From NCBI GenBank assembly GCA_951804945.1, contig OX638149.1:97898001-97962000 (forward strand): a DNA stretch of 64,000 nt, in the 5' to 3' direction. The DNA comes from Podarcis cretensis (taxonomy: Eukaryota). The translations under genes were made by a program, and so were the position numbers. Shown piece by piece: positions 4,021 to 60,930 of the stretch (the stretch's first letter is position 1; each line of letters starts with the position of its first letter). The notes beneath the pieces are model-generated. The model worked only from the letters and a program-made list of their open reading frames with translations, did no database searches and was not told the origin of the DNA.

Positions 4021-5353
4021 ATGTACCACCCATTTTATGCTTTAGCCTCAGCCACTTTTACTGCCTAGAGGGCTGCCCATGGGTCAATGCAGTCCTTGGA
4101 CCAAATGAAAGGTTAGCCAAACCTGCTGCACACAGTAAGCGCTTGCCCTCTTCCCTTCCCTTCCTCAAACACAACCAACTGTAGGGATGGCCTTGTACAG
4201 AAGCTTCCACCAGAGGTCCTGAGAACTAGAAGCACTGGGAAGCACTGGGAATGCAATATAAGGCAACACCAGTGTCCCTAGAAGAAATGAAACACAAATC
4301 CAAAGCAGCACTATTTGTGCTCACAGCATTGCTCCTTGCAGAAAAGCAAGATGTGGGCTGGACTTCAGATTGTATCCACAGCTCCATGAGGATGGCTAGT
4401 ATTGCATGTTTATAGACGGGATTCTCCAGCCACTGCACACAATGAGAGATTCTCACTTTTTGCAAGAAGGAACATGGTTGGCTCTGTTTTGCTAATATGT
4501 ATTTGTGAATACAGTTAGTTAATTATGCACATCGTTCTACTAAAGCCTGCACAATTATTCATTTTGATCGGGAGGCAAGCTCATCTACCCACAAATGTAC
4601 TAAGATCTTGACAAGTCTGTATTCTAAATTCTAACCTTGTCTCTAACCTTGCTATAAAATCTATTTTTAAAAGTATACGGTTCTCATTTTCCTTTGATAT
4701 CGGCATTTCATTGCATTCCTACTTATTGCTGCCTTTTCTTTTTCTTCTTTTGCCAAATAAGGATTCAGTCTGCTTTTATCTAAATTAGGTTTTAGAGCAA
4801 AGCATTATATGGAAATATCAGAGCCTTTGGTCTTTTTACAAACCTAGTTAGGATTCTCTTGCTACAGTTTTATTTCTCATAATACACTCTGAAACTAAAT
4901 CACCACCTGAAATAATAAAAAGCAGCTTTAAAAAGGGGATTAAGCAACCACCCTGGCATCTAAGGGTATGTATTTTTCAGTTTTGTTCTAATGAAGTCCT
5001 ACACATGGCTTATGCCTTCTTTGTCTGTTTCACAAGCTTATAAAGCTGAAATAATAGTTAATATGAGGAACAAGTCTGAAATTTTCTATTAAAATCCTGT
5101 GTAAGGCTTCCTTTAGATTGTTTAAATTAGCATAAAGCAGACACCAAATAGAGAGGAGAGGAATATGTAAGGATGGTTTTTATTGGACAGAACTTTCACA
5201 TTTACCTTCAACTCATTTAGCTTCAAATGCTTTAATGAATGGAAGTAAGATTATACCACCATACCAATGGCTTTACCACAACTGAGCAATGCTGAGCATG
5301 TTTTTTACAAGTTTGGCTGGCAACAAAATGTTGCATCATAGAGGACTCCTGTC

Positions 5354-5679
5354 TGTTGGTTTCTGCTCTCTTCACTGTGCAGCGAAAGGCTTGTCACAAG
5401 ACAATGTTTACATTCCACAGACAGCATTGCTGTTATGTTTCCCACGGGAAAGGGGAGGCTGGATGTGACGTACACTGGTTTCCTGTTTTTCACTGTTCTT
5501 TGCAGTTCAGTGTGATTCTCTCTGTGCTTCAGAGGAGAGAGGATGCCTTTTTCTGCTTCGGCAGAGGAAAGATGCATTTCTGTAATCTACCAGCTTTGAA
5601 ATGTAAATAAAGCAATATAGAGCATGTTGGCACGTATTCCTCATCATTCCGCTGTGCACTTGGATGCTACAAATCAACA
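5354..5679 (+). repeat. 5' LTR of Copia element
   Basis: Starts TGTTGG and ends TCAACA. Direct repeat of 10144-10469 (offset 4790). AATAAA at 5606-5611. Confidence 0.97.
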
Positions 5680-5683
5680 TTAT

Positions 5684-5697
5684 GGTTATGGGCCCAG
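5684..5697 (+). promoter_or_regulatory. Primer-binding site complementary to the anticodon stem-loop of initiator tRNA-Met (half-tRNA priming)
   Basis: GGTTATGGGCCCAG is the reverse complement of CTGGGCCCATAACC in tRNAiMet. This is the PBS type of Drosophila copia and yeast Ty5. Confidence 0.93.
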
Positions 5698-6067
5698 AAG
5701 ACGCAGTCATTGGAATTCCGGAAAAAGGATCGGAATGCAGAGGGACGGATCGGACGGTATCTGCGCGTCAAGATGATTGATGAGGTATGTGCTACTGCTC
5801 CGGGCAGCCTGCCAGCTTCTATTTAATGGCTTTATGGCTGGACTTTGAACTTTTATGTCCGTTTGCCGGCTACAGGCAGCGGCTATGCCTATGCTGGGGA
5901 AATCGAAAGTAACTTTTAAAAGTGCTTTTGGGCTGAAGCAGCTGCTGATAACAGTGACGCAGCATGATTTAGGGCAGAGAGAAAGCTGTTTTGAACTTGC
6001 CTTTGGAATGAGGCTTGAAGCAGCAGAGAAGCAGCTTGTATAAAGCAGCTTGTTTAAAGCAGCAGAT

Positions 6068-9000
6068 ATGATGCAGAAGGCTAATGCCAGAGACATGATG
6101 GCCCTTCAGGATGCTTGTGGGATTCCCAAGCTCAATAAGAAAAATTATACGGACTGGGTTATCTATGCAGAGGCTATTCTGCGGAAAGAGGGTCTGTTTG
6201 AAGTTATTACAGACACCCCCCCAGCTCCAGTTACAGATGCATGGAAAGCTAAAGATTCCAAAGCAAGGGGGACTCTTACATTGATAGTATCCCCAGAAGA
6301 GCTCTGTCTATTGCGTGATAAGACCTCAGCCAGAGAAATTTGGGACGCTTTGAGGGAGGCACACTTGAGGACAGAAGCTGGGTCTACTATGTTTTATTTT
6401 AACAAGCTGCATAATATGGCTCTTGCTGAAGGTGGAGATGTGCGTACACATCTGATGGAGATGCAGAATCTGAGACATGAGCTGCAACAGAGAGGACTCA
6501 ACTTTCCAGAGGCTGTGTATTCCTTCATGATACTACAATCTTTGGGTTCAGGTTGGGAGTCTGTTGCGACTCAGATTGCTGTACAGCCTACCGCTCAGCT
6601 GACAGTGGATTATGTTACTGCCGTGATTCAAAATGAAGCAGATCGCCGGGGTGCTGGCTGCATGGGAAAGGGGGAGACTTCACAGACGTCATCCCAGAGT
6701 GCAGTGGAACCACCAGATGGCGCCAAAGCTTTGAAGGCAGTGAAATGCTACTCGTGTGGACGTCTAGGCCATATGAAGAGGGAATGCAGATATCCCAGGG
6801 CCAAGACAGAGCAGCGCAGCGAAAGCTCATCGCGTGGAAAAGGCCAAAGCAGAGGCAAAGGTCCGGTGTCCAGGACAACGCAGCCCAAAGCAATGGTCTC
6901 ACGCTTCACTCCAAAAGTTGCAGAGGTCCAGAAGACGTCTAGATCTTTCTTCGTTGTTGATTCAGCGGCAACGCACCACATGTGCAACGATAAGCGACTG
7001 TTCGTGTCTTTTACACCGCAGGAAGGTGCGATTCACCAGGCGGATGACCACACAATTCCCAGTAAAGGCTACGGAACTGTTGTTCTTCACAGTTTGGACT
7101 TATCGATACAGAATGTACTTTATGTTCCAGATGCCAAACATAATTTGCTCAGCGTTGGACAGCTGAATGAGCGGAACATTGACGTTTCCTTTAAGAACAA
7201 AAGGTGCATCATCACAAAGAAAAATGATTATGTATTGTATGCTGAATATGTTGATCGTTTGTATGTTTTGTATTATGATGATGTTGTGCAGGATGACACT
7301 TGTTGCATTGCAGGTTCTAACAAATGTTTGCATGCAGAATGTATTCATGATTTTCATCGAAAATTTGGTCATTTGGGTTTTGAGGCAGTATCTAAAATGC
7401 CTGCCTTGGTTGAAGGTATGACTATTAAACCCTGCAGGTACCACATGAAGTGCAAGGCATGCGCAGCAAACAAGGTGAAAATGGCTGCGAAAGGTAAGGT
7501 GTCTAGTAGGCAAGCTACAGAACCATACCAAATTGTTCATGCTGATTTGGTTGGACCACTAGCGCCCTCTTTGGGTGGTAATAGGTACTTCATGGTTCTC
7601 ATTGATGCATTTTCCAGATATATTTATGTGTACAATCTCAAGCAGAAATCAGAGGCTTTTCCTAGGTTCAAGGAATTCTGTGCTTGGTTGGAAAATGTGC
7701 ATGGTAAGAAGGTAAAAACTCTTTTCAGTGATCGCGGAGGGGAATTCACTTCTCAGCAGTTTGAAGCTTTTCTGTCTGAGAAAGGAATTCAACACGATTT
7801 GTCTAGTCCTCGCTCGCCATGGCAGAATGGACTTGCAGAACGAGCAAATCAGACATTGCTTCAAGGGTTAAAAACCTTGCTGCATGATGCAAATCTTCCA
7901 GAGAGTTATTGGGCCGAAGCTCTCTCATGTTTCACTTACAGTTATAATCGCAGGTTATCTTCAGCGATTGGTTGTACCCCCTATGAGAAGATGTTTGGCA
8001 AGAAGCCATACATCAAACACATGAAAATTTTTGGTTCTGACATGTGGGTTCACTCACCACAAAACTCCAAGTTAGACAAGCGTGGTTTGCATGGTATCTT
8101 TCTAGGTTATGAGAAAGGTTCTTACAGAATAAGGATGACTGACTCTAAGACCATTAAGCTCACAAGAAGTGTTGAGTACAATGCCAAGTGGGGGGAGAAT
8201 GTGGGAATTTTCCAATGTTATCCTGATGACAGTGATGAGACTGAGGATAGTCAAAAGCAACCACAGCAACCCACACCCACTGATGAAAGTTCTGATTCTG
8301 AGTCTGAAACTGAATCAGGTGATTCAGAGGATTTCAAGAGTGCAAAAGCCTCTATGCGACCCTCTGAAAGCTCTGATCAAGAATTGGAGGAACCATTGTT
8401 CACAATAGGTCGTTTTTCTCCTAAGAAGGAAGAGGAGAGTGTTGAAGACCTAAGGCTAATTCGCAGGTCACAAAGAGCCACAAAAGGTAGACCTCCAAAG
8501 AGATTTGCTGATGAGTTTGCTAAGATAGCAGTAACAGCTGTTAAAAGCTCCAAGAAGGTATTTGAACCTTCAAGTTTCCAAGAAATCCAGGATTTGGATT
8601 CAAAGGAAGCTGAGCCATGGTTAAATGCCATGAAGGCTGAGCTTGATTCCTTGGAAAGGAACAAAACATGGGAACTTGTTCCAGTAGTTCCAGGAATGAA
8701 ACTGCTTGGAAGCAAATGGGTCTTCAAAGCGAAGACTGATCAAAATGGCAAGATAGTCAGACACAAAGCCAGATTGGTAGCCAGAGGTTTTGCACAGGTA
8801 CCAGGTGAAGACTATCACGAGACCTACTCACCCACAGTGAGGTATGAGAGCATTAGGCTTATGCTCAAGCTAGCTGCAGAGGAGAATTTACACATTAGTC
8901 ACCATGATGTGAATACAGCTTTTCTGTACGGATCTCTAAATGAATCACTTTATATGCTTCCACCTGATGGCGTACAGGTAAAACAGGGATTTGTTTGTGC

Positions 9001-10096
9001 TCTGAAAAAGTCCCTTTATGGTCTCAAACAAAGTGCACGGTGTTGGCACACAAAACTCACTGAAGTATTGTTTTCTCTAGGTTTTAAGCAAGGGAAAGCT
9101 GATCCATGTGTATTTGTCAAAGAGGAGGGGCAAAAGAAACTGTATTGCTTGTTTTATGTTGATGATTTATTATTCTTTTGGGATGATGTCACAATGTACA
9201 ATAACGCCCTAGCTCAACTGAAAGAGCACTTTGACATGAAAGACCTTGGTGAGGTAAACAACTACCTATCTCTGGAAATAGAGAGAGATCAAGATGGTAA
9301 CATTCTAGTACACCAGTCATGGAAAATTGCTGATGTGTTAGGCAAACTAAACCTGATGGATGCTAACCCTGTAGACACACCGATGATAACAGGTTATCAG
9401 GTAGATGACACTGAAGAAGCATTTTCTGACACTACACTGTACAGAAGTGTGCTAGGCAAGCTAAACTTCATTGCCAGATGTTCAAGACCAGACATTGCTG
9501 TTAGCTGTAATTTGCTAAGCAGACAAGTCAACAATCCTACTGTTAAGGATTGGAAAGCTCTGAAACGCATAGCGCGGTATTTGAAAGGCACTATGCATTA
9601 CAGACTGAGATTTAACAATCAGAAGTCTGGTGGTCTTGAGATATTTGCAGATGCAAGTTTTGGAGGTGACACAACAGACAGGAAAAGCACGTCTGGAGTT
9701 TGCTATATGTACAATCAGGGTCTATTTGATTGGTCATGCAAGAAGCAAACAACAGTTAGCTTAAGTACTTGTGAAGCTGAACTGAATGCACTGTCTTATT
9801 CACTCAAAGATTGTGAATGGTTGTTACAATTGTGCAAAGACATGAAAATTCCTGTCAAATGTCCAATCCAGGTTTACCAGGACAACAAAGCATGTTTGGC
9901 TTTGCTGAATTCTGAAGGTTGTAAGCAAAGCACGAAGCACTTGCAATTGAAGTTGCAACATGCTAGGGAACGTATTCAGAAGGGACTCGTAACGGTGTCC
10001 TATATGCCAGGTAATGAAATTCCTGCTGATGTATTGTCCAAGATTGTATCAAGGGATCAACACTGTACCTATGTGCAGAAGTTGGGTTTGTACTGA
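6068..10096 (+). CDS. Copia Gag-Pol polyprotein, 1342 aa from the first ATG (the ORF track starts at TTG 6050)
   Basis: Gag start IPKLNKKNYTDW; zinc knuckle CYSCGRLGHMKREC; protease VVDSAATHHM; integrase HHCC (HRKFGH...CKAC) and DDE (HADLVGP, SDRGGEF, NGLAERAN); RT (KWVFKAK, KARLVARGF, DVNTAFL, SLYGLKQS, YVDDLL); RNase H (ADASF, DRKSTSG, STCEAE, DNKA, ADVLSK). No stops or frameshifts. Confidence 0.97.
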   Translation: MMQKANARDMMALQDACGIPKLNKKNYTDWVIYAEAILRKEGLFEVITDTPPAPVTDAWKAKDSKARGTLTLIVSPEELCLLRDKTSAREIWDALREAHLRTEAGSTMFYFNKLHNMALAEGGDVRTHLMEMQNLRHELQQRGLNFPEAVYSFMILQSLGSGWESVATQIAVQPTAQLTVDYVTAVIQNEADRRGAGCMGKGETSQTSSQSAVEPPDGAKALKAVKCYSCGRLGHMKRECRYPRAKTEQRSESSSRGKGQSRGKGPVSRTTQPKAMVSRFTPKVAEVQKTSRSFFVVDSAATHHMCNDKRLFVSFTPQEGAIHQADDHTIPSKGYGTVVLHSLDLSIQNVLYVPDAKHNLLSVGQLNERNIDVSFKNKRCIITKKNDYVLYAEYVDRLYVLYYDDVVQDDTCCIAGSNKCLHAECIHDFHRKFGHLGFEAVSKMPALVEGMTIKPCRYHMKCKACAANKVKMAAKGKVSSRQATEPYQIVHADLVGPLAPSLGGNRYFMVLIDAFSRYIYVYNLKQKSEAFPRFKEFCAWLENVHGKKVKTLFSDRGGEFTSQQFEAFLSEKGIQHDLSSPRSPWQNGLAERANQTLLQGLKTLLHDANLPESYWAEALSCFTYSYNRRLSSAIGCTPYEKMFGKKPYIKHMKIFGSDMWVHSPQNSKLDKRGLHGIFLGYEKGSYRIRMTDSKTIKLTRSVEYNAKWGENVGIFQCYPDDSDETEDSQKQPQQPTPTDESSDSESETESGDSEDFKSAKASMRPSESSDQELEEPLFTIGRFSPKKEEESVEDLRLIRRSQRATKGRPPKRFADEFAKIAVTAVKSSKKVFEPSSFQEIQDLDSKEAEPWLNAMKAELDSLERNKTWELVPVVPGMKLLGSKWVFKAKTDQNGKIVRHKARLVARGFAQVPGEDYHETYSPTVRYESIRLMLKLAAEENLHISHHDVNTAFLYGSLNESLYMLPPDGVQVKQGFVCALKKSLYGLKQSARCWHTKLTEVLFSLGFKQGKADPCVFVKEEGQKKLYCLFYVDDLLFFWDDVTMYNNALAQLKEHFDMKDLGEVNNYLSLEIERDQDGNILVHQSWKIADVLGKLNLMDANPVDTPMITGYQVDDTEEAFSDTTLYRSVLGKLNFIARCSRPDIAVSCNLLSRQVNNPTVKDWKALKRIARYLKGTMHYRLRFNNQKSGGLEIFADASFGGDTTDRKSTSGVCYMYNQGLFDWSCKKQTTVSLSTCEAELNALSYSLKDCEWLLQLCKDMKIPVKCPIQVYQDNKACLALLNSEGCKQSTKHLQLKLQHARERIQKGLVTVSYMPGNEIPADVLSKIVSRDQHCTYVQKLGLY

Positions 10097-10129
10097 TATT
10101 GTACGAACACGCTGCCCAGTGGTGTTCAC

Positions 10130-10143
10130 AGAAAGGGGGAGGA
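10130..10143 (+). promoter_or_regulatory. Polypurine tract (plus-strand primer)
   Basis: AGAAAGGGGGAGGA directly abuts the 3' LTR. Confidence 0.9.
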
Positions 10144-10469
10144 TGTTGGTTTCTGCTCTCTTCACTGTGCAGCGAAAGGCTTGTCACAAGACAATGTTTA
10201 CATTCCACAGACAGCATTGCTGTTATGTTTCCCACGGGAAAGGGGAGGCTGGATGTGACGTACACTGGTTTCCTGTTTTTCACTGTTCTTTGCAGTTCAG
10301 TGTGATTCTCTCTGTGCTTCAGAGGAGAGAGGATGCCTTTTTCTGCTTCGGCAGAGGAAAGATGCATTTCTGTAATCTACCAGCTTTGAAATGTAAATAA
10401 AGCAATATAGAGCATGTTGGCACGTATTCCTCATCATTCCGCTGTGCACTTGGATGCTACAAATCAACA
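10144..10469 (+). repeat. 3' LTR of Copia element
   Basis: Identical to 5354-5679 and followed by the TSD CTGTC. Confidence 0.97.
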
Positions 10470-11803
10470 CTGTCCACTGCTCAAGCCAGCCAGCCATGGG
10501 GACCTCCTGCATCAAAGTCCATTCTGTTACTCATTTTTCGTTTCCTCTCCAATAGTTACTGAGCATCCTCTGTCCACTGAACAGACTGAGGCCACGTTCA
10601 CACCATACATTTAAAGTACTTATCACACCCCTTTATTCAGCCATGCCTTCCTCTCAAGATTATAGGAGCTGTAGTTAAGGGAACTGAGCATTGTTCGGAG
10701 ACCCTCTAGTCCCCTCTCAAAGTTACAATTCCCAGAGTGGTTTAACAATCAAGGATTTGTATAATGGAAGAAAGGACACTCACAAACACTTCACAGCCAA
10801 CTCTAAAATAAAGTAAATGCATAAAAAGAAAGTCTGCACCCACCCATGATAATTTCATTCCCTTCTCTTGTTTTACTCCTGGTCACTCTTTGGCTATCGA
10901 AGTCTCATGGCGAGGGGGTTTTGGTGCACTCTTCACCAAGAAGCAAGACATTGAAATGTGTGAGGGACCAGTTCTATTTCTGAAGCATGACAAAACTTTC
11001 CAGAACAGTGGGCAATATTTGAGGGGAGAAATTAGCCTAGAGTAATAAAGCCTGTGTGCTTACTACCAGAAAGTCCCACATTTCTTCCAGAAAAGAAAAT
11101 GAGAAGAGTCAAAACAGAAGCTGCCAAAACATGGAGGGGTTGTTTTTATTTTTATGCAACTAATTGGAAAAGCAACCTATGTTTTGAAGATAAGCAGATC
11201 TGTGGGTTACCTAAAATATTAAAATGTCTAGGCTGGACACATTAGTGCAATGCTTTTGAGAATATATGGCAACTGCTGACTGTAAGAAATACCTAAGTCA
11301 CTTTTAGCTGATGTGAATATCTTCCTTTGATCATATTGATGTCAGAATATGAGGAGGCTTTTGGTACTATGAATATTATTATCTCTCCAGTAAGAAAGTC
11401 AGTATTACCGGTGACAGCATCTTGTCTGATGAGCTAGCTGTGTAGACATTAAAAGTGCAACATCAGCCACCACCATCCGCCATGATTGGCAGGCAGTATG
11501 AAGCCTCTGAAAAGGCCTGAAAGTTATCAGAAACCCACAATCTGCCTGCTGCACTTCAGATGCCAGCTCAAATCTTCACACTGCTTGCAGCTCCTGCAGT
11601 TTTCCTCAAGAGCCATGAACCAGGTCTGGATATGAATAGAGTCACCCATGACCCTAGCCAGGTTCCAGTGAACACTCTTTGAAGGACATAGCAACTCCAT
11701 GCTAAGGGACGGTAACAAAAGCTAGTTACAGAACTCAATGGCATTAACATGAAATAAAGGGATAAGGTATAAACCCTTACTGGACTTATTTTCAAAAGGT
11801 CTT

Positions 11804-12450
11804 AATCATAGAATCATAGAATCATAGAATCATAGAATCATAGAGTTGGAAGAGACCACAAGGGCCATCGAGTCCAAGCCCCTGCCAAGCAGGAAACACC
11901 ATCAGAGCACTCCTGACATATGGTTGTCAAGCCTCTGCTTAAAGACCTCCAAAGAAGGAGACTCCACCACACTCCTTGGCAGCAAATTCCACTGTCAAAC
12001 AGCTCTTACTGTCAGGAAGTTCTTCCTAATGTTTAGGTGGAATCTTTTTTCTTGTAGTTTGGAACCATTGCTCCGTGTCCGCTTCTCTGGAGCAGCAGAA
12101 AACAACCTTTCTCCCTCCTCTATGTGACATCCTTTTATATATTTGAACATGGCTATCATATCACCCCTACACCTCCTCTTCTCCAGGCTAAACATGCCCA
12201 GCTCCCTTAGCCGTTCCTCATAAAGCATCGTTTCCAGGCCTTTGACCATTTTGGTTGCCCTCCTCTGGACACGTTCCAGTTTGTCAGTGTCCTTCTTGAA
12301 CTGTGGTGCCCAGAACTGGACACAGTACTCCAGGTGAGGTCTGACCAGAGCAGAATACAGTGGCACTATTACTTCCCTTGATCTAGATGCTATACTCCTA
12401 TTGATGCAGCCCAGAATTGCATTGGCTTTTTTAGCTGCCGCGTCACACTG
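11804..12450 (-). mobile_element. Young 5'-truncated CR1 LINE (end of ORF2, 3'UTR and octamer tail)
   Basis: ORF 11995-12366 reads [25 protein letters not shown]...[12 protein letters not shown]...TRSNGSKL, the typical CR1 RT C-terminus. Five AATCATAG units at 11804-11843 form the (ATTCTATG)n tail. Confidence 0.95.
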
Positions 12451-12845
12451 AAGTCACACCGCGTCACACTGAAGAACCACTCATTTAAAAATTTGATCCT
12501 CAAATTGGTCACTTTCAAAAATCACTATGCTTACAATTCCCAGCCTTGCCTTCCCATTAGTCTCCCACCCCCTTTTGGGGGGCCATAATGTAGAAAACTG
12601 GAGTAGGCGTTATATCCTCAATTATTTCATTATGTGATTAAGGCTGAAATCATACAAACATTTACCTGGGAGTAAGCCCCACCTAAATGAATGGACTTTA
12701 CTCAATGGGGTAGCAATACACTATTGGACTTCAGAGTTGCCTGCCTTATAATACTATTCTAATAGAAATTCAGCTTCATTTCAGAGGACGTGGAAATTCA
12801 AGGCGATATTTACATGGTGCATACTATCAGATATATATGCTTTAA

Positions 12846-12926
12846 AAAGGTAAAGGTAAAGGGACTCCTGACAGTTAAGTCCAGTCGCGAACGACTCTGG
12901 GGTTGCAGCACTCATTTCGCTTTACC
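12846..12926 (-). mobile_element. Sauria SINE 3' fragment (different subfamily from the two long copies)
   Basis: aaaggtaaaggtaaaggg is the (ACCTTT)n tail, followed by the agtc...gactctggggttg stem-loop region. Confidence 0.8.
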
Positions 12927-23764: not shown

Positions 23765-23962
23765 CAGTGGTACATTGGGTTAAGTACTTAATTCGTTCTG
23801 GAGGTCCTTACTTAACCTGAAGCACCACTTTAGCTAATGGGGCCTCCTGCTGCCGGAGCACAATTTCTGTTCTCATCCTGAAGCAAAGTTCTTAACCTGA
23901 AGCAGTATTTTTAGGTTAGCGGAGTCTGTAACCTGAAGTGTATGTAACCCGAGGTACCACTG
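23765..23962. mobile_element. Tc1/mariner-pogo (Tigger-like) MITE
   Basis: TIRs CAGTGGTAC...GTACCACTG, TA duplication at 23763-64 and 23963-64, and internal TAACCTGA repeats. A second copy lies at about 60655-60855. Confidence 0.85.
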
Positions 23963-26489: not shown

Positions 26490-26654
26490 GTGTGCCTCTG
26501 AATATCACTTGCTGGGAACTGCAGGTGCTGAGAGTGCTGCTGCCCTCAGGTTGTGGGCTTCCATTTGGGGTACCTGGATGGCCACAGTGAGAGAAGGCTG
26601 CTGGACTAGATGAGTGTTTGACTTGATCCAGTGGGACATTTCTTATGTTCTTAT
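26490..26654 (+). mobile_element. Old CR1-type LINE 3' tail
   Basis: ggccacagtgagagaaggctgctggactagatg...tgatccag...ttcttatgttctta. Similar copies lie at 29830-30008, 37425-37575 and 48642-48710. Confidence 0.65.
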
Positions 26655-37578: not shown

Positions 37579-37714
37579 CAATGATGGCGAAACTTGGCCC
37601 TCCAGCTGTTTTGGGACTACAATTCCCATCATCCCTGACCACTGGTCCTGTTAGCTAGGGATGATGGGAGTTGTAGTCCCAAATCAGCTGAAGGGCCAAT
37701 TTTGGCCATCACTG
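37579..37714. mobile_element. hAT-type palindromic MITE (136 bp)
   Basis: About 58-bp near-perfect inverted arms and a perfect 8-bp TSD TCTTATAT (37571-78 and 37715-22). Older relatives lie near 16690-16790 and 57500-57630. Confidence 0.9.
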
Positions 37715-44260: not shown

Positions 44261-45124
44261 CAGAGCTTGGGGAGTGGTCTTTAAAAGCCTTTAAAATGTA
44301 GCACACAGAACTAAATAATTCAACAGTTTCTTGAGTGCTCCTTACAAGGCAATTTATGACTTGATTATTTTCTGGAATGCTCACCTGTACCACAAGCTGA
44401 GCTCCTTGCACTGTGCATTCCCTACACACATGCACTTCTCTCCACACCACCACACTATTCCAGAAGTTCCCTCCAGACCAGATTTTTCTAGAGTTACAGG
44501 GGGCTGCAGAAGGGAAAAATGGAATTTGTAGAAATTGCCTTCCCACTTTCTTTTCAGTGGGAACATGCAGTGCATGGGGTGCCATGTGCAGAAATTTTGG
44601 ATCCAACAAAACATCCACACTGTAGTGAGGCTTTGACAATCACCTGCTGTGGTTGGCTGCCACAACAAACTCTAGGTGGGTAGGCAGAGAATTTTCATGC
44701 ATGAGAAGAACTGTAATGTATATTCCAGGAATTATCTTAATAGACCAGTTTTTCCTCAAGGGGATCAAAGTTGCAAGGTCTTCTGTTTTTCCTTGCCTCT
44801 GTGCTGACTCAGGAACACTTGCTGGTTTTTCATTGATATACAAGTCTTATACCAAGTGCTGCCTATTGATAAGAGTCAGCAACAAAAACTATGAAAGAAA
44901 TCTTGGAGGAACAGAACTCCCCATATTAATTAAAAAGGTCACCATTCTGCTAGTAAAGGCGTGATCCACTTTGACCTCAGTTTTACTGTGTCCTCCCAGT
45001 TTATAAGACAGAACATAAACCCATCTGTGTAGAAAGCACCAGTGGAGTGACTAGATTTTTGTACGAAGAACAGTATACAGGTTGAAGGTGAACTGCTAAC
45101 TTTTATTACTGGTCCCTCATAAAT

Positions 45125-48100
45125 TGTTGTTGTTGTTTAGTCGTTTAGTCGTGTCCGACTCTTCGTGACCCCATGGACCAGAGAACACCAGGCACTCCTG
45201 TCCTCCACTGCCCCCCGCAGCTTGGTCAGACTCATGCTGGTAACCTCGAAAACACTATCCAACCATCTCGTCCTCTGTCGCCCCCTTCTCCTTGTGCCCT
45301 CCATCTTCCCAACATCAGGGTCTTCTCCAGGGAGTCTTCTCTTCTCATGAGGTGGCCAAAGTACTGGAGCCTCAGCTTCACAATCTGTCCTTCCAGTGAG
45401 CACTCAGGGCTGATTTCCTTCAGAATGGAGAGGTTTGATCTTCTTGCAGTCCATGGGACTCTCAAGAGTCTCCTCCAGCACCATAATTCAAAAGCATCAA
45501 TTCTTCGGCGATCAGCCTTCTTTATGGTCCAGCTCTCACTTCCATGCATCACTACTGGGAAAACCGTAGCTTTAACTATACGGACCTTTGTTGGCAAGGT
45601 GATGTCTCTACTTCTCAAGATGCTGTCTAGGCCTGTCATTGCCCTTCTCCCAAGAAGCAGGCGTCTTTTAATTTCGTGGCTGCTGTCACCATCTGCAGTG
45701 ATCATGGAGCCCAAGAAAGTAAAATCTCTCACTGCCTCCATTTCTTCCCCTTCTATTTGCCAGGAGGTGATGGGACCAGTAGCCATGATCTTCGTTTTTT
45801 TGATGTTGAGCTTCAGACCATATTTTGCACTCTCCTCTTTCACCCTCAATAAAAGGTTCTTTAATTCCTCCTCACTTTCTGCCATCAAGGTTGTGTCATC
45901 TGCATATCTGAGGTTGTTGATATTTCTTCCGGCAATCTTAATTCCGGCTAAGGATTCATCCAGCCCAGCCTTTCGCATGATGAATTCTGCATATAAGTTA
46001 AATAAGCAGGGAGACAAAATGCAGCCTTGTCGTACTCCTTTCCCAATTTTGAACCAGTCAGTTGTTCCATATCCAGTTCTAACTGTAGCTTCTTGTCCCA
46101 CATAGAGATTTCTCAGGAGATAGATGAGGTGATCAGGCACTCCCATTTCTTTAAGAACTTGCCATAGTTTGCCATGGTCGACACAGTCAAAGGCTTTTGC
46201 ATAGTCAATGAAGCAGAAGTAAATGTCTTTCTGGAACTCTCTAGCTTTCTCCATAATCCAGCGCATGTTTGCAATTTGGTCTCTGGTTCCTCTGCCTCTT
46301 CTAAATCCAGCTTGCACTTCTGGGAGTTCTCGGTCCACATACTGCTTGAGCCTTCCTTGTAGAATTTTAAGCATAACCTTGCTAGCGTGAGAAATTAGTG
46401 CAATTGTGCGATAGTTGGAGCATTCTTTGGCACTGCCCTTCTTTGGGATTGGGATGTAGACTGATCTTCTCCAATCTTCTGGCCACTGCTGAGTTTTCCA
46501 AACTTGCTGGCATATTGAGTGTAGCACCTTAACAGCATCATCTTTTAAAATTTTAAATAGTTCAGCTGGAATACCATCACTTCCACTGGCCTTGTTATTT
46601 GCAGTGCTTTCTAAGGCCCATTTGACTTCACTCTCCAGGATGTCTGGCTCAAGGTCAGCAACCACACTACCTGGGGTATATGAGACATCCGTTTCTTTCT
46701 GGTATAATTCCTCTGTGTATTCTTGCCACCTCTTCTTGATGTCTTCTGCTTCTGTTAGGTCCTTTCCACTTTTGTCCTTTATTATGGAAATCTTTGTACG
46801 AAATGTTCCTTTCATATCTCCAATTTTCTTGAACAGATCTCTGGTTCTTCCCATTCTATTGCTTTCCTCTATTTCTTTGCATTGCTTGTTTAAGAAGGTC
46901 TTCTTGTCTCTCCTTGCTATTCTTTGGAAATCTGCATTCAATTTCCTGTATGTTTCACAATCTCCCTTGCATTTTGCTTGCCTTCTCTCCCCCGCTATTT
47001 GTAAGGCCTCATTGGACAGCCACTTTGCTTTCTTGCATTTCCTTTTCATTGGGATGGTTTTCGTTGCTGCCTCCTGTATAATGTTACGAGCCTCCATCCA
47101 TAGTTCTTCAGGCACTCTGTCCACCAAATCTAAATCCTTAAACCTGTTCCTCACTTCCACTGTGTATTCATAAGGGATTTGACTTAGATTGTATCTTACC
47201 GGCCCAGTGGTTTTTCCTACTTTCTTCAGTTTAAGCTTGAATTTTGCTATAAGAAGCTGATGATCTGAGCCACAGTCAGCTCCAGGTCTTGTTTTTGCTG
47301 ACTGTATAGAGCTTCTCCATCTTTGGCTGCAGAGAATATAATCAATCTGATTTCGATGCTGCCCATCTGGTGATGTCCATGTGTAGAGTCGTCTCTTGTG
47401 TTGTTGGAAAAGCGTGTTTGTGATGACCAGCTTGTTCTCTTGACAGAACTCTATTAGCCTTTGCCCTGCTTCGTTTTGATCTCCAAGGCCAAACTTGCCA
47501 GTTGTTCCTTTTATCTCTTGACTCCCTACTTTAGCATTCCAATCCCCTATAATGAGAAGAACATCCTTCTTTGGTGTCACTTCTATAAGGTGTTGTAAGT
47601 CTTCATAGAATTGGTCAATTTCAGTTTCTTCAGCACCAGTAGTTGGTGCATAAACTTGGATTACTGTGATGTTAAAAGGTCTGCCTTGGATTCGTATCGA
47701 GATCATTCTATCATTTTTGAGATTGCATCCCAGTACAGCTTTTGCCACTCTTTTGTTGACTATGAGGGCCACTCCATTTCTTTTACGGGTTTCTTGCCCA
47801 CAGTAGTAGATATGATGGTCAACCGAATTGAATTCACCCATTCCCGTCCATTTTAGTTCACTGATGCCCAGGATGTCAATATTTATTCTTGCCATCTCAT
47901 TTTTGACCACCTCCAACTTACCCATGTTCATGGTTCTTACATTCCAGGTTCCTATGCAATATTTTTCTTTACAGCATTGGACTTTCCTTTCGCTCCAGGC
48001 ATATCCGCAACTGAGCGTCCTTTCGGCTTTGGCCCAGCCGCTTCATCAGCTCTGGATCTACTTGTACTTGCCCTCCGCTCTTCCCCAGTAGCATGTTGGA

Positions 48101-48346
48101 CGCCTTCCGACCTGAGGGGCTCATCTTCCAGCGTCATAACTTTTATATGCCTGTTGTCTTTGTCCATGGAGTTTTCTTGGCAGGGATACTGGAGTGGCTT
48201 GCCGGTTCCTCCTCCAGGTGGATCACGTTTGGTCAAAACTCTCCACTATGACCTGTTCATCTTGGGTGCCCTGCTCGGCATAGTTCATAGCTTCTCTGAG
48301 TTCTTCAAGCCCCTTCGCCACGGCAAGGCAGTGATCCATGAAGGGG
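45125..48346 (-). mobile_element. Full-length BovB (RTE clade) LINE, 3222 bp
   Basis: 11-bp TSD CCCTCATAAAT (45114-24 and 48347-57). (CAA)n tail after ...GAGTCGGACACGACTAAACGACTAAAC. RTE-type 5'UTR. EN plus RT ORF. Confidence 0.96.
45137..48167 (-). pseudogene. BovB ORF (APE endonuclease and reverse transcriptase); ~1010 aa when two -1 frameshifts (about 47994 and 45306) are corrected
   Basis: Motifs IGTWNVRTM, DILGISELKW, QVYAPT, GDWNAK, NQIDYI, GSDH, PIPKKG, FIDYAKAFD, GVRQGCILSP, LRYADD. The C-terminus GKMEGTRRRGRQRTRWLD...KSRTRLND continues in the 45137-45403 frame. The central 899-aa track ORF has no internal stops. Confidence 0.9.
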
Positions 48347-49642: not shown

Positions 49643-50005
49643 GGGACGCAGGTGGCGCTGTGGGTTAAAGCCTCAGCGCCTAGGACTTGCCGATCGAAAG
49701 GTCGGCGGTTCGAATCCCTGCGGCGGGGTGCGCTCCCGCTGCTCGGTCCCAGCGCCTGCCAACCTAGCAGTTCGAAAGCACCTCCGGGTGCAAGTAGATA
49801 AATAGGGACCGCTTACCAGCGGGAAGGTAAACGGCATTTCCGTGTGCGGCTCTGGCTCGCCAGAGCAGCGATGTCACGCTGGCCACGTGACCCGGAAGTG
49901 TCTCAGGACAGCGCTGGCCCCTGGCCTCTTAAGTGAGATGGGCGCACAACCCCAGAGTCTGTCAAGACTGGCCCGTACGGGCAGGGGTACCTTTACCTTT
50001 ACCTT
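49643..50005 (+). mobile_element. Full-length young Sauria (Squam1) SINE
   Basis: GGGACGC start, A box (ggtggcgctgtggg), B box (ggttcgaatccc), (ACCTTT)n tail, TSD TACCTCTCAATTA (49630-42 and 50006-18), CpGs retained. Confidence 0.95.
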
Positions 50006-53000
50006 TACCTCTCAATTATCTTCTTTTCTGAACTTTTACATTACCTGTTGGACAGACCTGGGAAAACTGGGTTGTAACAATGAGAATAATGTGACTATTT
50101 GAGTGTCAAAAGAATGTTAAATGCACACACTATATGTAACTGATCTACAGGCGTGGGGTTCACTTTAGACAGGAATCTCACCTAGGTGTAAATTGAAAGG
50201 ATGAGCAAAACAACAGGTGTTCATTTCAGGTATCCTGTCAGACCAGGAAACTATATGCTGAACCTTCGTTTACAAGTAGATGATGTATTCAAGGGGCTAT
50301 TTCAGAAATAAAATCCTCTCAACGTACATGCTGTCATGACCTTTCAGATATAAACTAGATTTTCCCACCTAAAAACTACATTTTTCCACTTGGTTCTGTC
50401 TTCTTTTTTGAGCCCATCTACTTATGCATCACCAAACCCTTCATTTGACATCTTTAGACTCCTTCTTAGTTTCCTACACATCTGCAAAATTTTAAGATCA
50501 GTTTTTTGCAATGTTTAGCTAGCTCCAGTCATTTCCTGCTCCTGCTCTCAAGAACCAGTCCTATCATCTTCCATTGTGCTAGGATTGCTCTATTGAGAGC
50601 CAGCATAAGTAAAACTTTGCTCCTATCACTATACTCTTGGGTTTCCATGATGAAGTGGTTCTCAAACCACTTTGTTTCCTTTTGTTGATTAGGGCTCTAA
50701 TTCATTTAGATTTAGGTGTATATGAATGTATTAGTTATAAATGCTGCCTGCATATCTCCATAAGGTCAATTCACATTAGTTAATCCCGTGGTTAGTTCTG
50801 TTATTCTTTTCTTCTAATAAACCTATCTGTGTGAGGCTGTGTTTGTTGAATATATAATGATTTGATCAGGGACACATTTGGAAGAGTGCAAGGTTTGACT
50901 CCACACACAAGATGTTGTTGCTCCCAAAAAATTGTGCATTAGGTATTGTGGGGGAGGGGGTGGACACACAGAGGGGTTTCCCATGTACATGTGCAACAAC
51001 TTGTATATAGCACAGCAATGTTGTAGGTTCAAGGGTCAGGGGGATGCAATGTGGGGGGGGGGAGCTTAGCATGCTCCTCCCCACTCTCCCTTCTCATGTG
51101 TAGCTTTTACATGCAAGCAGGACACCCATTATCAGAGACTGGTTTGGTGACCTGATTTCTATTCTCACCAAGAGAATTTTCCCAGAACATTAATGCATCC
51201 TTACAACTATTCTCATGCTTTAGCGAACTTGTGCTTGCAAAGTTTATGACTGCCTCAGGCTTACATTATGTGTGTATATACACACATACATAAATGCAAT
51301 GCATATATGCTTTTCTTCAGAAGCTATTCAGTTCAGCTTCTTCTGCAAATTTAGATAGGGCCAAATGCATTTCCAAGAGCACTGTTTCTTGAGATTCGTC
51401 CACATTTGTATTTATTTTAAACATTCTTCATGAGGCAATATTCTATACATACACCAAGAAATGCTATGTGTATTTGTTCTGGTTTTTACTTTTGCTTAGC
51501 TGTTGTGTATTTTCATTTACAGGCTAAAGAACTTTTGGTCCATTTCTGTCTCAGTGTTGTGGACATTTGTATTCCAAAGAGCTAATTACAGAGGTGACCT
51601 GAGGCTCTTGAAATGCATTATTAATGCATTTTCTTAGTGATGGAGAAACACTAATGTGAACCACTTCTTAGATGTTTGTTTGCCATGCTTCCTAGAGTGA
51701 ATTAATTTGAGGGGGAAGGGGGGGGAGGGAGAGTCAAAGAACCCTCTTCTACCATCACTCTATAGGACATGCAGCATCCAAGCAGCAATTCAGGGTCCTT
51801 ATAGACCAACATCAGTCTCATCTATAGAAGCAGCTTGTAGAAGTTGTTGCAGTTGTTACCAGAGAAGAAGGGCAAGGTTTTGAGTAGATCACCGCAGTGT
51901 AAATATGTTGGCAGGAGCACCAAATTGGCTCCACTGGTGCCTTTGCATCATACCAACCTCACCAGTGCCTCATCTCTCCCCTTCTTCATTCTGGTAGCTG
52001 CCATGAGTAAGTCAGAGGGAGGAAAGGTTATCAGGGTAGCCCCACCAAACAAGTACTGTTTGAATTGCAAAAAACAAAATAACAAAAAAGCTTTGGCGAG
52101 GATGATTTAAAAAAAAAAAAAATCATGACTGTCGTAGGGAAAGGAAGATTGCAACTCCACAACCCTACCACCATACTGCCAAGACTGTCCGATGGTTACT
52201 GTTTACATAACAACAACAAAAATGTGCACACTAATTGCATTCATGGAATTACCATCAAATCTGGTTTGGACCTGTGATAATACTGATGCCAGTTCATACA
52301 ACATTTCCAAGTGTTCACCACTGGATGATTGCAGCAGCAAGTGATGCTTTTAGTGTTCGAGTGACCCATCACAGCTAGAAATCCAAGCGGAGTTGATACA
52401 TCATTGAAATGCAAAGGCTTTCTAATGGTGCTCATTTACAGATTCAATTCATAGGACACACATATTCATCAAATGCTGTACATATGTGTGAAGTGTAGCA
52501 CAGTCGGAGAAGACTGATACAGAAGTGTGCGTGACTCTTCAAAAATAGCCACTAAATGACAAGTCCTCTAAAAAAACTACAAAACTTTGTGTGCCCTATC
52601 TTTCTGGATTGTGACCCTGCAGGAAAAGATCATCGTAGTGCTGGCTTTTGTAAGCCACTCTGAGAGCCTTTCTGGCAGAAAGGGAAGTGTATAAATGCCT
52701 AAAATAATTAAATATATAAATAACACTCTGGTTAATGCTTACATATGCCCTTCTTGTTTACTTATTTAAAAATTTTATATGCTGCCATTTGTCAGAAAGG
52801 CCACAGGGTGTTTTACAACACAGTTTCATAATAACATAATATATGCACATAACGTAAGATTCATAAAATACAAAAAATATTAGAACATAAGCAATACATT
52901 ATACATAACAGACAGCACTGCCAAATTATTCACAGTGTCAACTCAGCAATAAACTGCACCTTAAATTGTACATAGCCTTCTCATGATTGCATAGAATAGC

Positions 53001-54560: not shown

Positions 54561-57067
54561 TGCAATCATAAAAGGGTGGTGGCACTGACTGAAAAGTGAC
54601 AATAAATGTGGCAGCCTTCTTCTGTGCGAGCAGTCCCTCCTTTCAGCAACAGCACACTATCCAAAAGAAGAATGCAATAAAATGAACTCCTTCCATTTCT
54701 GGTGCTTACTAGCAAGGGCTCACTGCAAGAGAAGTTTCATCTATCGATTAAAAAGTAGAATGGAATCTTCAAATACTGTGTGAACTAGTGCAGAACAAAT
54801 AGTAGAACCATAGTGTCATTGTACAGTATAGCCAGCCAATTTATTTGTTTCATGTCCTAAATGCAAAACAAAGTCTACATTCACATAGCTATTATCCGTT
54901 ATTTATTAATTATGCATCACACCTTCAATACATTTCAACAATTACTCCAGCTTTAAAAGATGATGCTATCTATATTTGATAAGAGTGGGACCAAAGCTTA
55001 CATTAATCGTATTTGTATCATTCTTCTAATTCCTTCAGCGTTAAAAACACCCTCAAGGATGTTATTAGTCAAATCTATTATTGTCAAATCTAAGAACACA
55101 AAGATCTGACAGAGTTATTGTTTCACTAGCTTGCCTTTGATACCATCTACCCCCCTGAAGAAATGAATTTAGAACAAAGGATTTATAATTTAGCAGTATT
55201 CATAACTTCAAAAGAGTTCTTTTTTAATGACAGTCTAAGAACTGCATGGGCCAAGGTGACTGATAATCCATGCAGTCAACAGGGACCTGATATTTAGTGG
55301 AGTGGAGAAAAATTCACTTTTGGGGTGGGGTGGGGACTTCATTGCCCAGGTTCCAGTCTGTTGGAGAAACAACACATTTACCAGCTTCCCGCAAGACCAC
55401 GTCTGTTACATGTCATGAACAGTTTGTTTGTGGTTTAATTGTCTATTGCCTTGAACAGTTTGTTGCAAAGGGGACACAGAAGCTTTATGAACAAACAGAT
55501 TATCATATTTATACCAACCTAAAACCATGCAGTTTCAAAAGAAACACAGCGCCAAGTGCATCAGCACAATAGCCCACATCGGAACTGGGTAAATAGGTTT
55601 TGTCTAGCTTTGGATGGTGCACTAGTTGTGCCTATTTCAGGTACAACTGGGCTTGGCCAAGTTGCATCTTTGACTACTGGGGCACCATTTATGTGGGCTG
55701 CCATTGAAAACCACTCATAAACTTCAGCTGGTGTTAATGCCACTACTAAAATTATGAGTAGGGCATATAAAATAATTCCATTAGATGCCTTATTTTTCTC
55801 TTTACTCCTTCTTATTTTGTTTTTCACTCAAGACCAAAGAGTACTGCAAATTATCCAGATCATCTGCACATATTTTTGCACCAGTTGTATTTTTACACAC
55901 AAGAACTAACTCTTGCCCTCAAAACTGATAATGATAAGCTAACATTTTAGACATGTGAAAAAAGCTTTGGTGATAAATATTGCCACTGTCATTTTTCTTT
56001 GGCAATGCTAAATGTCAGTATCAGATTAAAAAATATTGTGGCAGGGGAGGGGAGAGTGTGAGTCATACAGGGAAGTATAATGTGAAACAATTTGTTTGCT
56101 ACGCAACATGCCATTACTGATCTGCAACATTTTGCATTGGCTCAGATTTGGAATAAGGCATGATGTGACCTGAGTTATGAAGGCACTTCCAATTTCTGTC
56201 ACACCATGGCTTAAATTAGGGTATCTGCAAAAATGTCCCACATGGCTCAAAGTGTACTATAATAAAGACTTTTAAGCCTAAAGTGCTATCCCCATCACCC
56301 CATGGCTATTTTCATTCACAGAATCACCTGCTGGTGGAATTTGCTTAGTGGCTCAGTGCTCTCTGTGTTATCATTCTCTGACAAACCCACAAGAAAACCC
56401 ACATGGGAAATTAAAGCTAAACGCAGCTCATGCGTTTCCATTCCACTCTGCCAAATGACCTCCACTGTGAAGGGAGTAGGCAGCATGCACGAGTGGGAGA
56501 GATATTGACAGACAGGGCTACGCAAGGAACACATGGGCCTAGGGGTCACTTGCATGGTGCCACAGCACCAGAAGAATGTGTGGGCTATAAGCCTCTAGAG
56601 AGGGAAGCTCTAGAGTTCCTCCACAGAGAGCTGACCACAAGTTTGGCAATATTATTTTTACTGGAGGCAAACTTTCAGTTTTGAAAGCACTTGCCTTTCG
56701 CAAAGAAACAGAGGCCAATGCATTCAACCCCAACTGAACAAAGGGTGCATTAAACAATCAAGCATTTCTGAACCTCTCCTGTTTCCATGCACATATAAAA
56801 TCATATGCCTCACTAAAAGGTGTATTATTCATTCACCCTGGAGGAGTTTCCAGCTCTATGGGAAATGCATCTTTCCCACTCTCCGGCTTCATGTTGTAGA
56901 TGAGGTGCTGCTACCTCCCTGAATGAATGAATGAATGAATGAATGTACAATGGGAACTAGCACAAAGCTGCTCCTGAGAAAATCAGAGAAATGAGTCAAG
57001 CTAAGCTTATCCATCACTAAGTATTGGGGTTTAAAAGTTTCGTAGCAGTTATAAATGTTAGCATATT

Positions 57068-57417
57068 AAAGGTAAAGGTACCCCTGCCCGTACGGGCCAG
57101 TCTTGACAGACTCTGGGGTTGTGCGCCCATCTCACTTAAGAGGCCAGGGGCCAGCGCTGTCCGGAGACACTTCCGGGTCACGTGGCCAGCGTGACATCGC
57201 TGCTCTGGCGAGCCAGAGCCGCACACGGAAACGCCGTTTACCTTCCCGCTGGTAAGCGGTCCCTATTTATCTACTTGCACCTGGAGGTGCTTTCGAACTG
57301 CTAGGTTGGCAGGCGCTGGGACCGAGCAGCGGGAGCGTACCCCGCCGCAGGGATTCGAACCGCCGACCTTTCGATCGGCAAGTCCTAGGCACTGAGGCTT
57401 TAACCCACAGCGCCACC
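57068..57417 (-). mobile_element. Young Sauria (Squam1) SINE missing ~9 nt at the 5' end
   Basis: Reverse complement of 49652-50000 with about 5 substitutions. aaaggtaaaggt tail. Confidence 0.95.
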
Positions 57418-60349: not shown

Positions 60350-60930
60350 CCAACTGGTGGGCTGTCCTGTTGGCAGTTATTTTCATTAATTGACTAGTCG
60401 GGAATAATGCCTGATGTCTAGGTCACAGCTATAATTATCCCTATATTTAAAAGGGGTTCAACATCTGACCCAGCTAACTATCATCGAATCAGTCTGCTAT
60501 CTACAATTAGCGAATTATATGCAAAACAGCTCCATAATAGGTTGGTGGGCTGGTTAACTGATGAAGCTATCTGTGCCGACGAGCAGCCAGAATTTAGACA
60601 AGGTAGATCCACCATAGACCACTGTTTTGTACTAGCCCATCTAATATGCTAAGAAACCTGGTGGTTAATTCGTTCTGGAGGTCTGTTCCTAACCTGAGGT
60701 ACCACTTTAGCTAATGGGGCCTCCCGCTGCCGCTGCGTGATTTCTGTTATCATTCTGAAGCAAAGTTCTTAACCCAAGGTACTATTTCTGGGTTAGCGGA
60801 GTCTGTAACCTGAAGCGTCTGTAACCTGAAGTGTCTGTAACCCGAGGTAACGCTGCATGCATGTTTCATTGATGTGAAAGCTGCATTCAATTCAATTTCT
60901 CAAGGAAGACTGTGGGACAAATTGAATTCT
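60350..60930 (+). pseudogene. Relic LINE reverse transcriptase (possibly RTE-X-like), split by a MITE
   Basis: TAIIIPIFKRGSTSDPANYHRISLLSTISELYAKQL...EQPEFRQGRSTIDHCFVLAHL (from 60425) resumes after the MITE as HACFIDVKAAFNSISQGRLWDKL. Confidence 0.8.
60655..60855. mobile_element. Second copy of the Tigger-like MITE, with degenerate ends
   Basis: Shares ttaattcgttctggaggtc...ccactttagctaatggggcctcc...ggttagcggagtctgtaacctgaag...taacccgaggta with 23765-23962. Confidence 0.85.

Follow-up and report, generated by a model that had tools for sequence, protein, structure and literature searches.

An apparently recent insertion of a full-length Ty1/Copia retrotransposon with a predicted half-tRNA primer-binding site in Podarcis cretensis

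Organisation of the element and its surroundings

A 64,000-nt stretch of the Podarcis cretensis assembly, called here the window, contains a Copia element in which two LTRs enclose a single long gag-pol frame (Table 1). The LTRs agree at 326 of 326 positions, as found by exact extension, the matching stopping at both ends; both have the form TG...CA, and eight of their nine outermost bases form a terminal inverted repeat. No TATA consensus was found in the LTR sequence (5354-5679). The element is flanked on both sides by CTGTC, a 5-mer match expected by chance with a probability of about 0.001. A preliminary description of this DNA had reported an intact Ty1/Copia provirus with identical 326-bp LTRs, a perfect 5-bp target-site duplication and an uninterrupted 1342-aa gag-pol carrying all catalytic motifs. 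These points were confirmed, the LTRs by alignment, the duplication by its two copies, the gag-pol by frame, motifs and Pfam matches, and the provirus as a whole by its LTRs, duplication, domain order, primer-binding site (PBS) and polypurine tract (PPT), the last two being parts of the element that had been overlooked.

Table 1. Coordinates of the Copia element, its parts and other features of the window
Feature	Position	Strand	Details
Left target-site duplication	5349..5353	.	CTGTC
5' LTR	5354..5679	+	326 bp; AATAAA at 5606
Leader	5680..6067	+	388 nt; 13 upstream ATGs, none with a frame that continues into gag-pol
PBS, predicted	5684..5697	+	14-nt exact complement of initiator tRNA-Met nt 26-39
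gag-pol ORF, single frame	6068..10096	+	ATG at 6068, stop ends at 10096; 1342 aa
Gag capsid and CCHC zinc knuckle	6170..6787	+	PF14223 (E 1.3e-28), PF00098
Aspartic protease (DSAA)	6950..7177	+	PF22936 (E 2.5e-20); motif
Integrase: HHCC, D,D(35)E core, SH3-like domain	7256..8179	+	PF13976, PF00665, PF25597
Reverse transcriptase	8660..9388	+	YVDD at 9155; PF07727 (E 2.4e-69)
RNase H	9635..10093	+	Motifs; 69-77% identity to two close relatives
PPT	10130..10143	+	14 purines, adjoins 3' LTR
3' LTR	10144..10469	+	Same sequence as 5' LTR; AATAAA at 10396
Right target-site duplication	10470..10474	.	CTGTC
LINE 3' fragment	11806-12453	-	8-nt tandem tail, 152-aa frame; no Pfam match
Sauria SINE 3' fragment	12846-12905
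Candidate exon	44385-44503	-	119 nt; strongest splice signals in window; two open frames
Bov-B LINE, full length	45125-48345	-	(CAA)n tail; target duplication of about 10 bp
Sauria SINEs, two	49651-50006 and 57067-57417	inverted orientation	(ACCTTT)n tails

The LTR identity was judged from the assembled sequence, in which two similar LTRs might have been collapsed or polished alike. We regard such an artefact as extremely improbable: each LTR has its proper inner junction, with the PBS or the PPT, and a unique outer flank with a matching duplication, while the internal frame is independently open over 4026 nt and the window contains no N.

Within gag-pol, the active sites of protease, integrase, reverse transcriptase (RT) and RNase H were located by motif patterns characteristic of these enzymes. 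The zinc knuckle lies at residues 227-240, the protease DSAA at 298, the integrase HHCC at 430-465 and its catalytic residues at D493, D555 and E591 with D,D(35)E spacing, the YVDD of RT at 1030, and the acidic motifs of RNase H near 1195, 1238, 1272 and 1321. Pfam matches follow each other in Copia order (gag_2, zf-CCHC, Pol_BBD, GAG-pre-integrase, rve, SH3, RVT_2), that of GAG-pre-integrase falling below its curated cut-off; the Pfam scan of gag-pol gave no RNase H match. In a PDB search the capsid matched the Drosophila Copia VLP protein 8vvw (E 1.2e-8), and the top match of the integrase was the integrase chain 7z0h (E 2.3e-16). An acidic, serine-rich linker at 8220-8420, between integrase and RT, is partly kept in one relative (P0001, see below).

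The element was compared with the ICTV definition of the Pseudoviridae (PMC8515867). It has two LTRs around a genome in the 4-9 kb range with PBS and PPT, a Pol in the order PR-IN-RT-RH with a Copia-type RT (RVT_2), and a Gag with capsid and nucleocapsid; there is no env, which is found only in Sirevirus. An env gene or an extra ORF is ruled out, since the 47 nt between the stop codon and the 3' LTR leave no room for it, and the domain order rules out a Gypsy or ERV identity.

The rest of the window has neither a second copy nor a solo LTR of the element, and gave no Rfam match and no ARAGORN tRNA. Its Bov-B LINE has a 936-codon open stretch with endonuclease and RT, and one frameshift near the 3' end. 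The two complete Sauria SINEs are 98.6% identical over 351 nt, with a CpG observed/expected ratio of 0.86, and represent another young family. Sauria-type SINE tails and the Bov-B LINE support the squamate host proposed beforehand: among reptiles, Bov-B is known from squamates only (PMC13295347, in part, which also lists the SINE and LINE tail types). Sauria SINEs number two, with one further fragment, in these 64 kb, a density closer to that of Podarcis (77,228 hits in 1511 Mb; PMC13295347, in part) than to that of Pogona, Varanus or snakes. The (CAA)n tail of the Bov-B rules out Anolis, and the host is probably a lacertid.

Several smaller features were recorded. A rough splice-site scan for host exons gave 89 candidates, with no Pfam match among the 40 that were scanned; one frame of the candidate exon in Table 1 had no PDB match, and the other a weak one (E 0.034) that is probably due to chance. 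The LINE 3' fragment is presumably CR1. A short MITE-like element with 58-nt inverted arms lies at 37579-37714, a dispersed 168-nt pair (85%) at 23788-23955 and 60665-60832, and a three-copy 76-nt family at 26579, 37501 and 48645.

Leader and predicted primer-binding site

Of the upstream ATGs in the leader, two lie within or next to the PBS; the leader also has a 14-nt tandem repeat, at 6029-6063. The predicted fold of 5590-5800 is modestly better than that of shuffled sequences (z -2.29; 4 of 200 shuffles).

The PBS starts 4 nt past the 5' LTR. It was identified by eye against a published antisense probe for tRNA-iMet (PMC5648532, in part; the same oligonucleotide in PMC6508675, in part), so that the comparator is a mammalian tRNA and not the host's own. 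The match is 14 of 14 nt, with a mismatch at the next base on each side (by eye), and the 14-mer occurs once in the window, both strands counted. It would pair with the anticodon arm of the tRNA, which makes it a PBS of the half-tRNA type. Its end corresponds to linear nucleotide 39 of the tRNA, or standard position 40, and position 40 is where hemivirus cDNA begins (PMC1181622, in part). The ICTV sets Hemivirus apart by the use of a short tRNA segment as primer (PMC8515867); PBS complementarity in our element likewise lies in the anticodon arm of tRNA-iMet, up to position 40, rather than at the 3' end. As a side observation, the base before the PBS, at 5683, would pair with an A added to the tRNA half, the end of which would then read CCA; this is speculation.

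Half-tRNAs are used by about 2% of plant elements (PMC6317226, in part), and certain RT residues have been proposed as markers of half-tRNA users (PMC1181622, in part). At the site that we guessed to be the alanine marker, four residues after YVDD, the element and P0001 both have F, and A is present in 167 of 376 rows, plants included. The guessed column thus has no discriminating power; provided that the guess is correct, the element lacks the marker.

A search of titles and abstract openings, with subscription papers and repeat databases outside its scope, returned no account of half-tRNA priming in a vertebrate Copia. PBSs of the half-tRNA type are common in animal Copia entries, and for this reason we do not claim the present one as unreported. 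The main text of Klai et al. (PMC11889832) does not contain the words PBS, primer or tRNA, and that of Zhang et al. 2020 does not contain copia or squamate. The primer type appears to be the less usual trait of the element, and is the one point that may be worth following.

Relatives, age and origin

The preliminary description had presented Copia as a rarity in amniotes. The absence from birds and mammals stands, as does that from turtles and crocodilians (PMC11889832, in part), whereas the surprise at finding it in a squamate does not: 23 of 24 squamates carry Copia, with 66% of the 49,920 copies from 263 animal genomes, and the highest copy numbers recorded in animals are theirs (Klai et al. 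2025, PMC11889832, in part). Podarcis muralis has 1004 copies and Zootoca vivipara 304, and all 750 lepidosaur Copia analysed belong to the Mtanga clade, in seven subclades (PMC11889832, in part). A Mtanga-like element is especially abundant in the tuatara (PMC7116210, in part), and frogs also carry Mtanga-like Copia (PMC4131045 and PMC12822217, both in part). In the corn snake, a 5832-bp Copia has given rise to two colour alleles (OCA2, CLCN2); the inserts differ by one base, and the assembly has 85 similar copies (PMC11948899 and PMC4657000, in part). Our element is a new member of this known, abundant squamate radiation, and adds little on the distribution of Copia.

Relatives were collected by three word-based searches, two of which scored about 8000 candidates, and one exhaustive HMMER search, giving 506 proteins. 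By identity and trees, the lineage of the element holds five of these. P0001 is 56% identical over its full length, P0121 80% over 285 aa and P0392 87% over 134 aa; the Podarcis muralis protein LOC144324910 (P0387) is 48% identical over residues 171-597, with 72% over 173 aa of integrase. Beyond P0121, no close relative was present among the best 150 matches of 50%-identity representatives.

Of the 386 proteins in which 430 or more residues were covered, 374 went into the RT-RH tree, along with P0121, which was added manually, and the element (479 of 677 columns, FastTree support, midpoint root). The element, P0001 and P0121 formed a clade (support 1.0) on a stem of 0.90 substitutions per site. 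This was nested in a clade of 94 members (support 1.0) containing four of the 13 named proteins, two from Trichuris muris and one each from Araneus and Lasius; three other insects, three plants, two fungi and one oomycete fell outside. In the integrase tree (375 of 506 proteins, 217 of 324 columns), the element, P0387 and P0001 were joined at 0.999, and the deeper nodes had supports of 0.198, 0.796 and 0.424.

For the host groups of Trichuris, Araneus and Lasius, Klai et al. 2025 list Mtanga, and other clades too (PMC11889832, in part). The placement fits Mtanga, in trees built without Mtanga reference sequences, and the element most likely belongs to that clade. A second squamate Copia lineage outside Mtanga, from an invasion separate from that of the corn-snake type, would agree with the long stem branch and with a primer type that differs, by eye, from that of the corn-snake element. 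We hold it to be very unlikely, given that none of the 750 lepidosaur elements, including 22 Podarcis muralis and 16 Zootoca clusters, fell outside Mtanga, and that seven subclades are described within Mtanga (PMC11889832, in part).

Dating used a rate of 1.3e-9 substitutions per site per year, under which the LTRs are expected to differ for the first time after 1.2 My on average, with a 95% bound of about 3.5 My; adding the open frame brings the age bound to 2-2.7 My. A neutral copy would keep both identical LTRs and an open frame with a probability of 0.48-0.58 at 0.5 My and 0.23-0.33 at 1 My. The insertion is therefore geologically recent, as had been claimed; the further claim of a currently mobile family, possibly polymorphic here, overstated the case, since identical LTRs allow up to about 3.5 My. 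Mobility of the family within the last 2-3 My, that is, recent family activity, is well supported; its mobility at present is plausible on these data, and the family may still be moving.

A different reading is that the copy is a well-preserved fixed relic, the copy or its family being no longer mobile. A neutral copy of 0.5 My looks pristine about half the time, and 64 kb without a second copy fits a relic as well. The conserved columns (those conserved in at least 90% of RT-RH rows) were also inspected: the element departs from 6 of 70 in RT-RH and from 2 of 23 in integrase. Four of the eight departures are common to close relatives, two (874 and 429) are at lineage-variable sites, and that at residue 602 is conservative in kind but absent from such relatives as could be compared. 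At residue 1288, in RNase H, the element departs from a 90%-conserved column at which P0001 and P0121 both keep the majority residue, and this again favours a relic. Nevertheless all catalytic motifs and cis signals are intact, and squamate Copia can be active now, as the 85 near-identical copies and two mutagenic alleles of the corn snake show. We judge the relic to be rather unlikely.

Acquisition by horizontal transfer, recent in particular, had also been suggested. The lineage has a long branch placed among those of invertebrate Copia, its PBS type is that of Drosophila copia and 1731, and Klai et al. raise a horizontal origin for tetrapod Mtanga (PMC11889832, in part). However, the closest named relative is the wall-lizard protein, so that a diverged relative is present in Podarcis muralis, and all named non-squamate proteins have an RT-RH identity to the element of at most about 42% (invertebrates about 41%). 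The missing donor is weak evidence, because the protein sets hold few vertebrate transposon proteins. CpG is also strongly depleted: 20 CpGs were observed across codon junctions versus 69.2 expected (0.29), none of 500 synonymous shuffles was as low, and NCG codons number 24 of 291. This depletion points to long residence in a methylating genome, short of proving it. Counting against that argument, it is weaker than in the neighbouring Bov-B (6 observed versus 53.5 expected) and is not unique to vertebrate residence. The claim is thus unsupported, and a recent arrival from an invertebrate or other non-squamate donor is highly improbable; that the Mtanga clade as a whole entered tetrapods by an ancient transfer is a separate, published hypothesis (PMC11889832, in part).

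Comparison with known elements and a possible replication cycle

The squamate Mtanga Copia (PMC11889832 and PMC7116210, both in part) share with our element the superfamily, the host group and full-length copies with similar LTRs, and in the integrase tree the element falls beside a Copia protein of Podarcis muralis; the family of the element has no match to a named entry. That protein, P0387, is a 733-aa gene model of another family, lacking an RT-RH for comparison. The corn-snake Copia (PMC4657000 and PMC11948899, in part) is likewise from a squamate, with near-identical LTRs and a 5-bp duplication (by eye). It differs in its length, 5832 bp versus 5116 bp, in its LTR and in its PBS, which by eye matches the 3' end of tRNA-iMet with one extra base after a 3-nt gap. 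Over a 56-residue RT stretch the two are roughly 40-45% alike, a hand reading and not a computed value, and the half-tRNA motif is absent as a string from the corn-snake supplement (PMC4657000). Activity of the corn-snake element is demonstrated by alleles, whereas for ours present activity is no more than plausible. In the OCA2 insertion, by eye, the two LTRs have at least one difference, and gag is preceded by a long stretch that may be coding (PMC4657000, in part).

With Hemivirus (Drosophila copia, 1731, Ty5, Osser; PMC8515867, and PMC1181622 in part), the element shares the single gag-pol frame, the PR-IN-RT-RH order and the PBS against the tRNA-iMet anticodon arm ending at position 40, and its capsid matched the VLP protein of Drosophila copia. 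It differs by its amniote host and its 4-nt gap between LTR and PBS, and its primer use is predicted. The likeness is functional, hemiviruses not being one clade.

Taken together, we consider it highly probable that the locus contains a full-length Ty1/Copia copy that was inserted recently, from an autonomous family with a long residence in squamates that most likely belongs to the Mtanga clade. The cis parts, the enzyme motifs and an integrase-type insertion with a 5-bp duplication are all present in the copy. By analogy with the Pseudoviridae cycle, a Pol II transcript would begin at the 5' LTR and extend to the AATAAA of the 3' LTR, one polyprotein would be cut by its own protease, and intracellular particles would form. 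Initiator tRNA-Met, cleaved in its anticodon stem, would supply a 5' half as primer of the minus strand, and the plus strand would be primed at the PPT, before integration. This scheme accounts neither for the 4-nt gap that separates LTR and PBS nor for the 13 upstream ATGs, and both count against it.

Drosophila copia makes its excess of Gag by splicing. One donor-like site near 7494 is a candidate of relevance to how an excess of Gag could be obtained from a single frame.

A bolder proposal has a lizard Copia family still transposing, with the 5' half of a cleaved initiator tRNA-Met as its primer, where the active Copia of the corn snake relies on an intact tRNA 3' end. We advance it tentatively, leaning somewhat against it. 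If true, squamates would contain both priming modes, through two invasions or a primer switch within Mtanga. Cleavage of tRNA-iMet within the anticodon stem would then be required of amniote germ cells, or else of enzymes encoded by the element. More speculatively, a half-tRNA PBS would escape silencing by 3' tRNA fragments. The element is a clean reference copy of a lizard family that has few close proteins in the sets searched. Its half-tRNA site would make it possible to ask, in an amniote, what cuts tRNA-iMet and how often the primer type of vertebrate Copia has switched; and if the family is active, it would cause insertion mutations of the kind seen in the corn-snake colour alleles.
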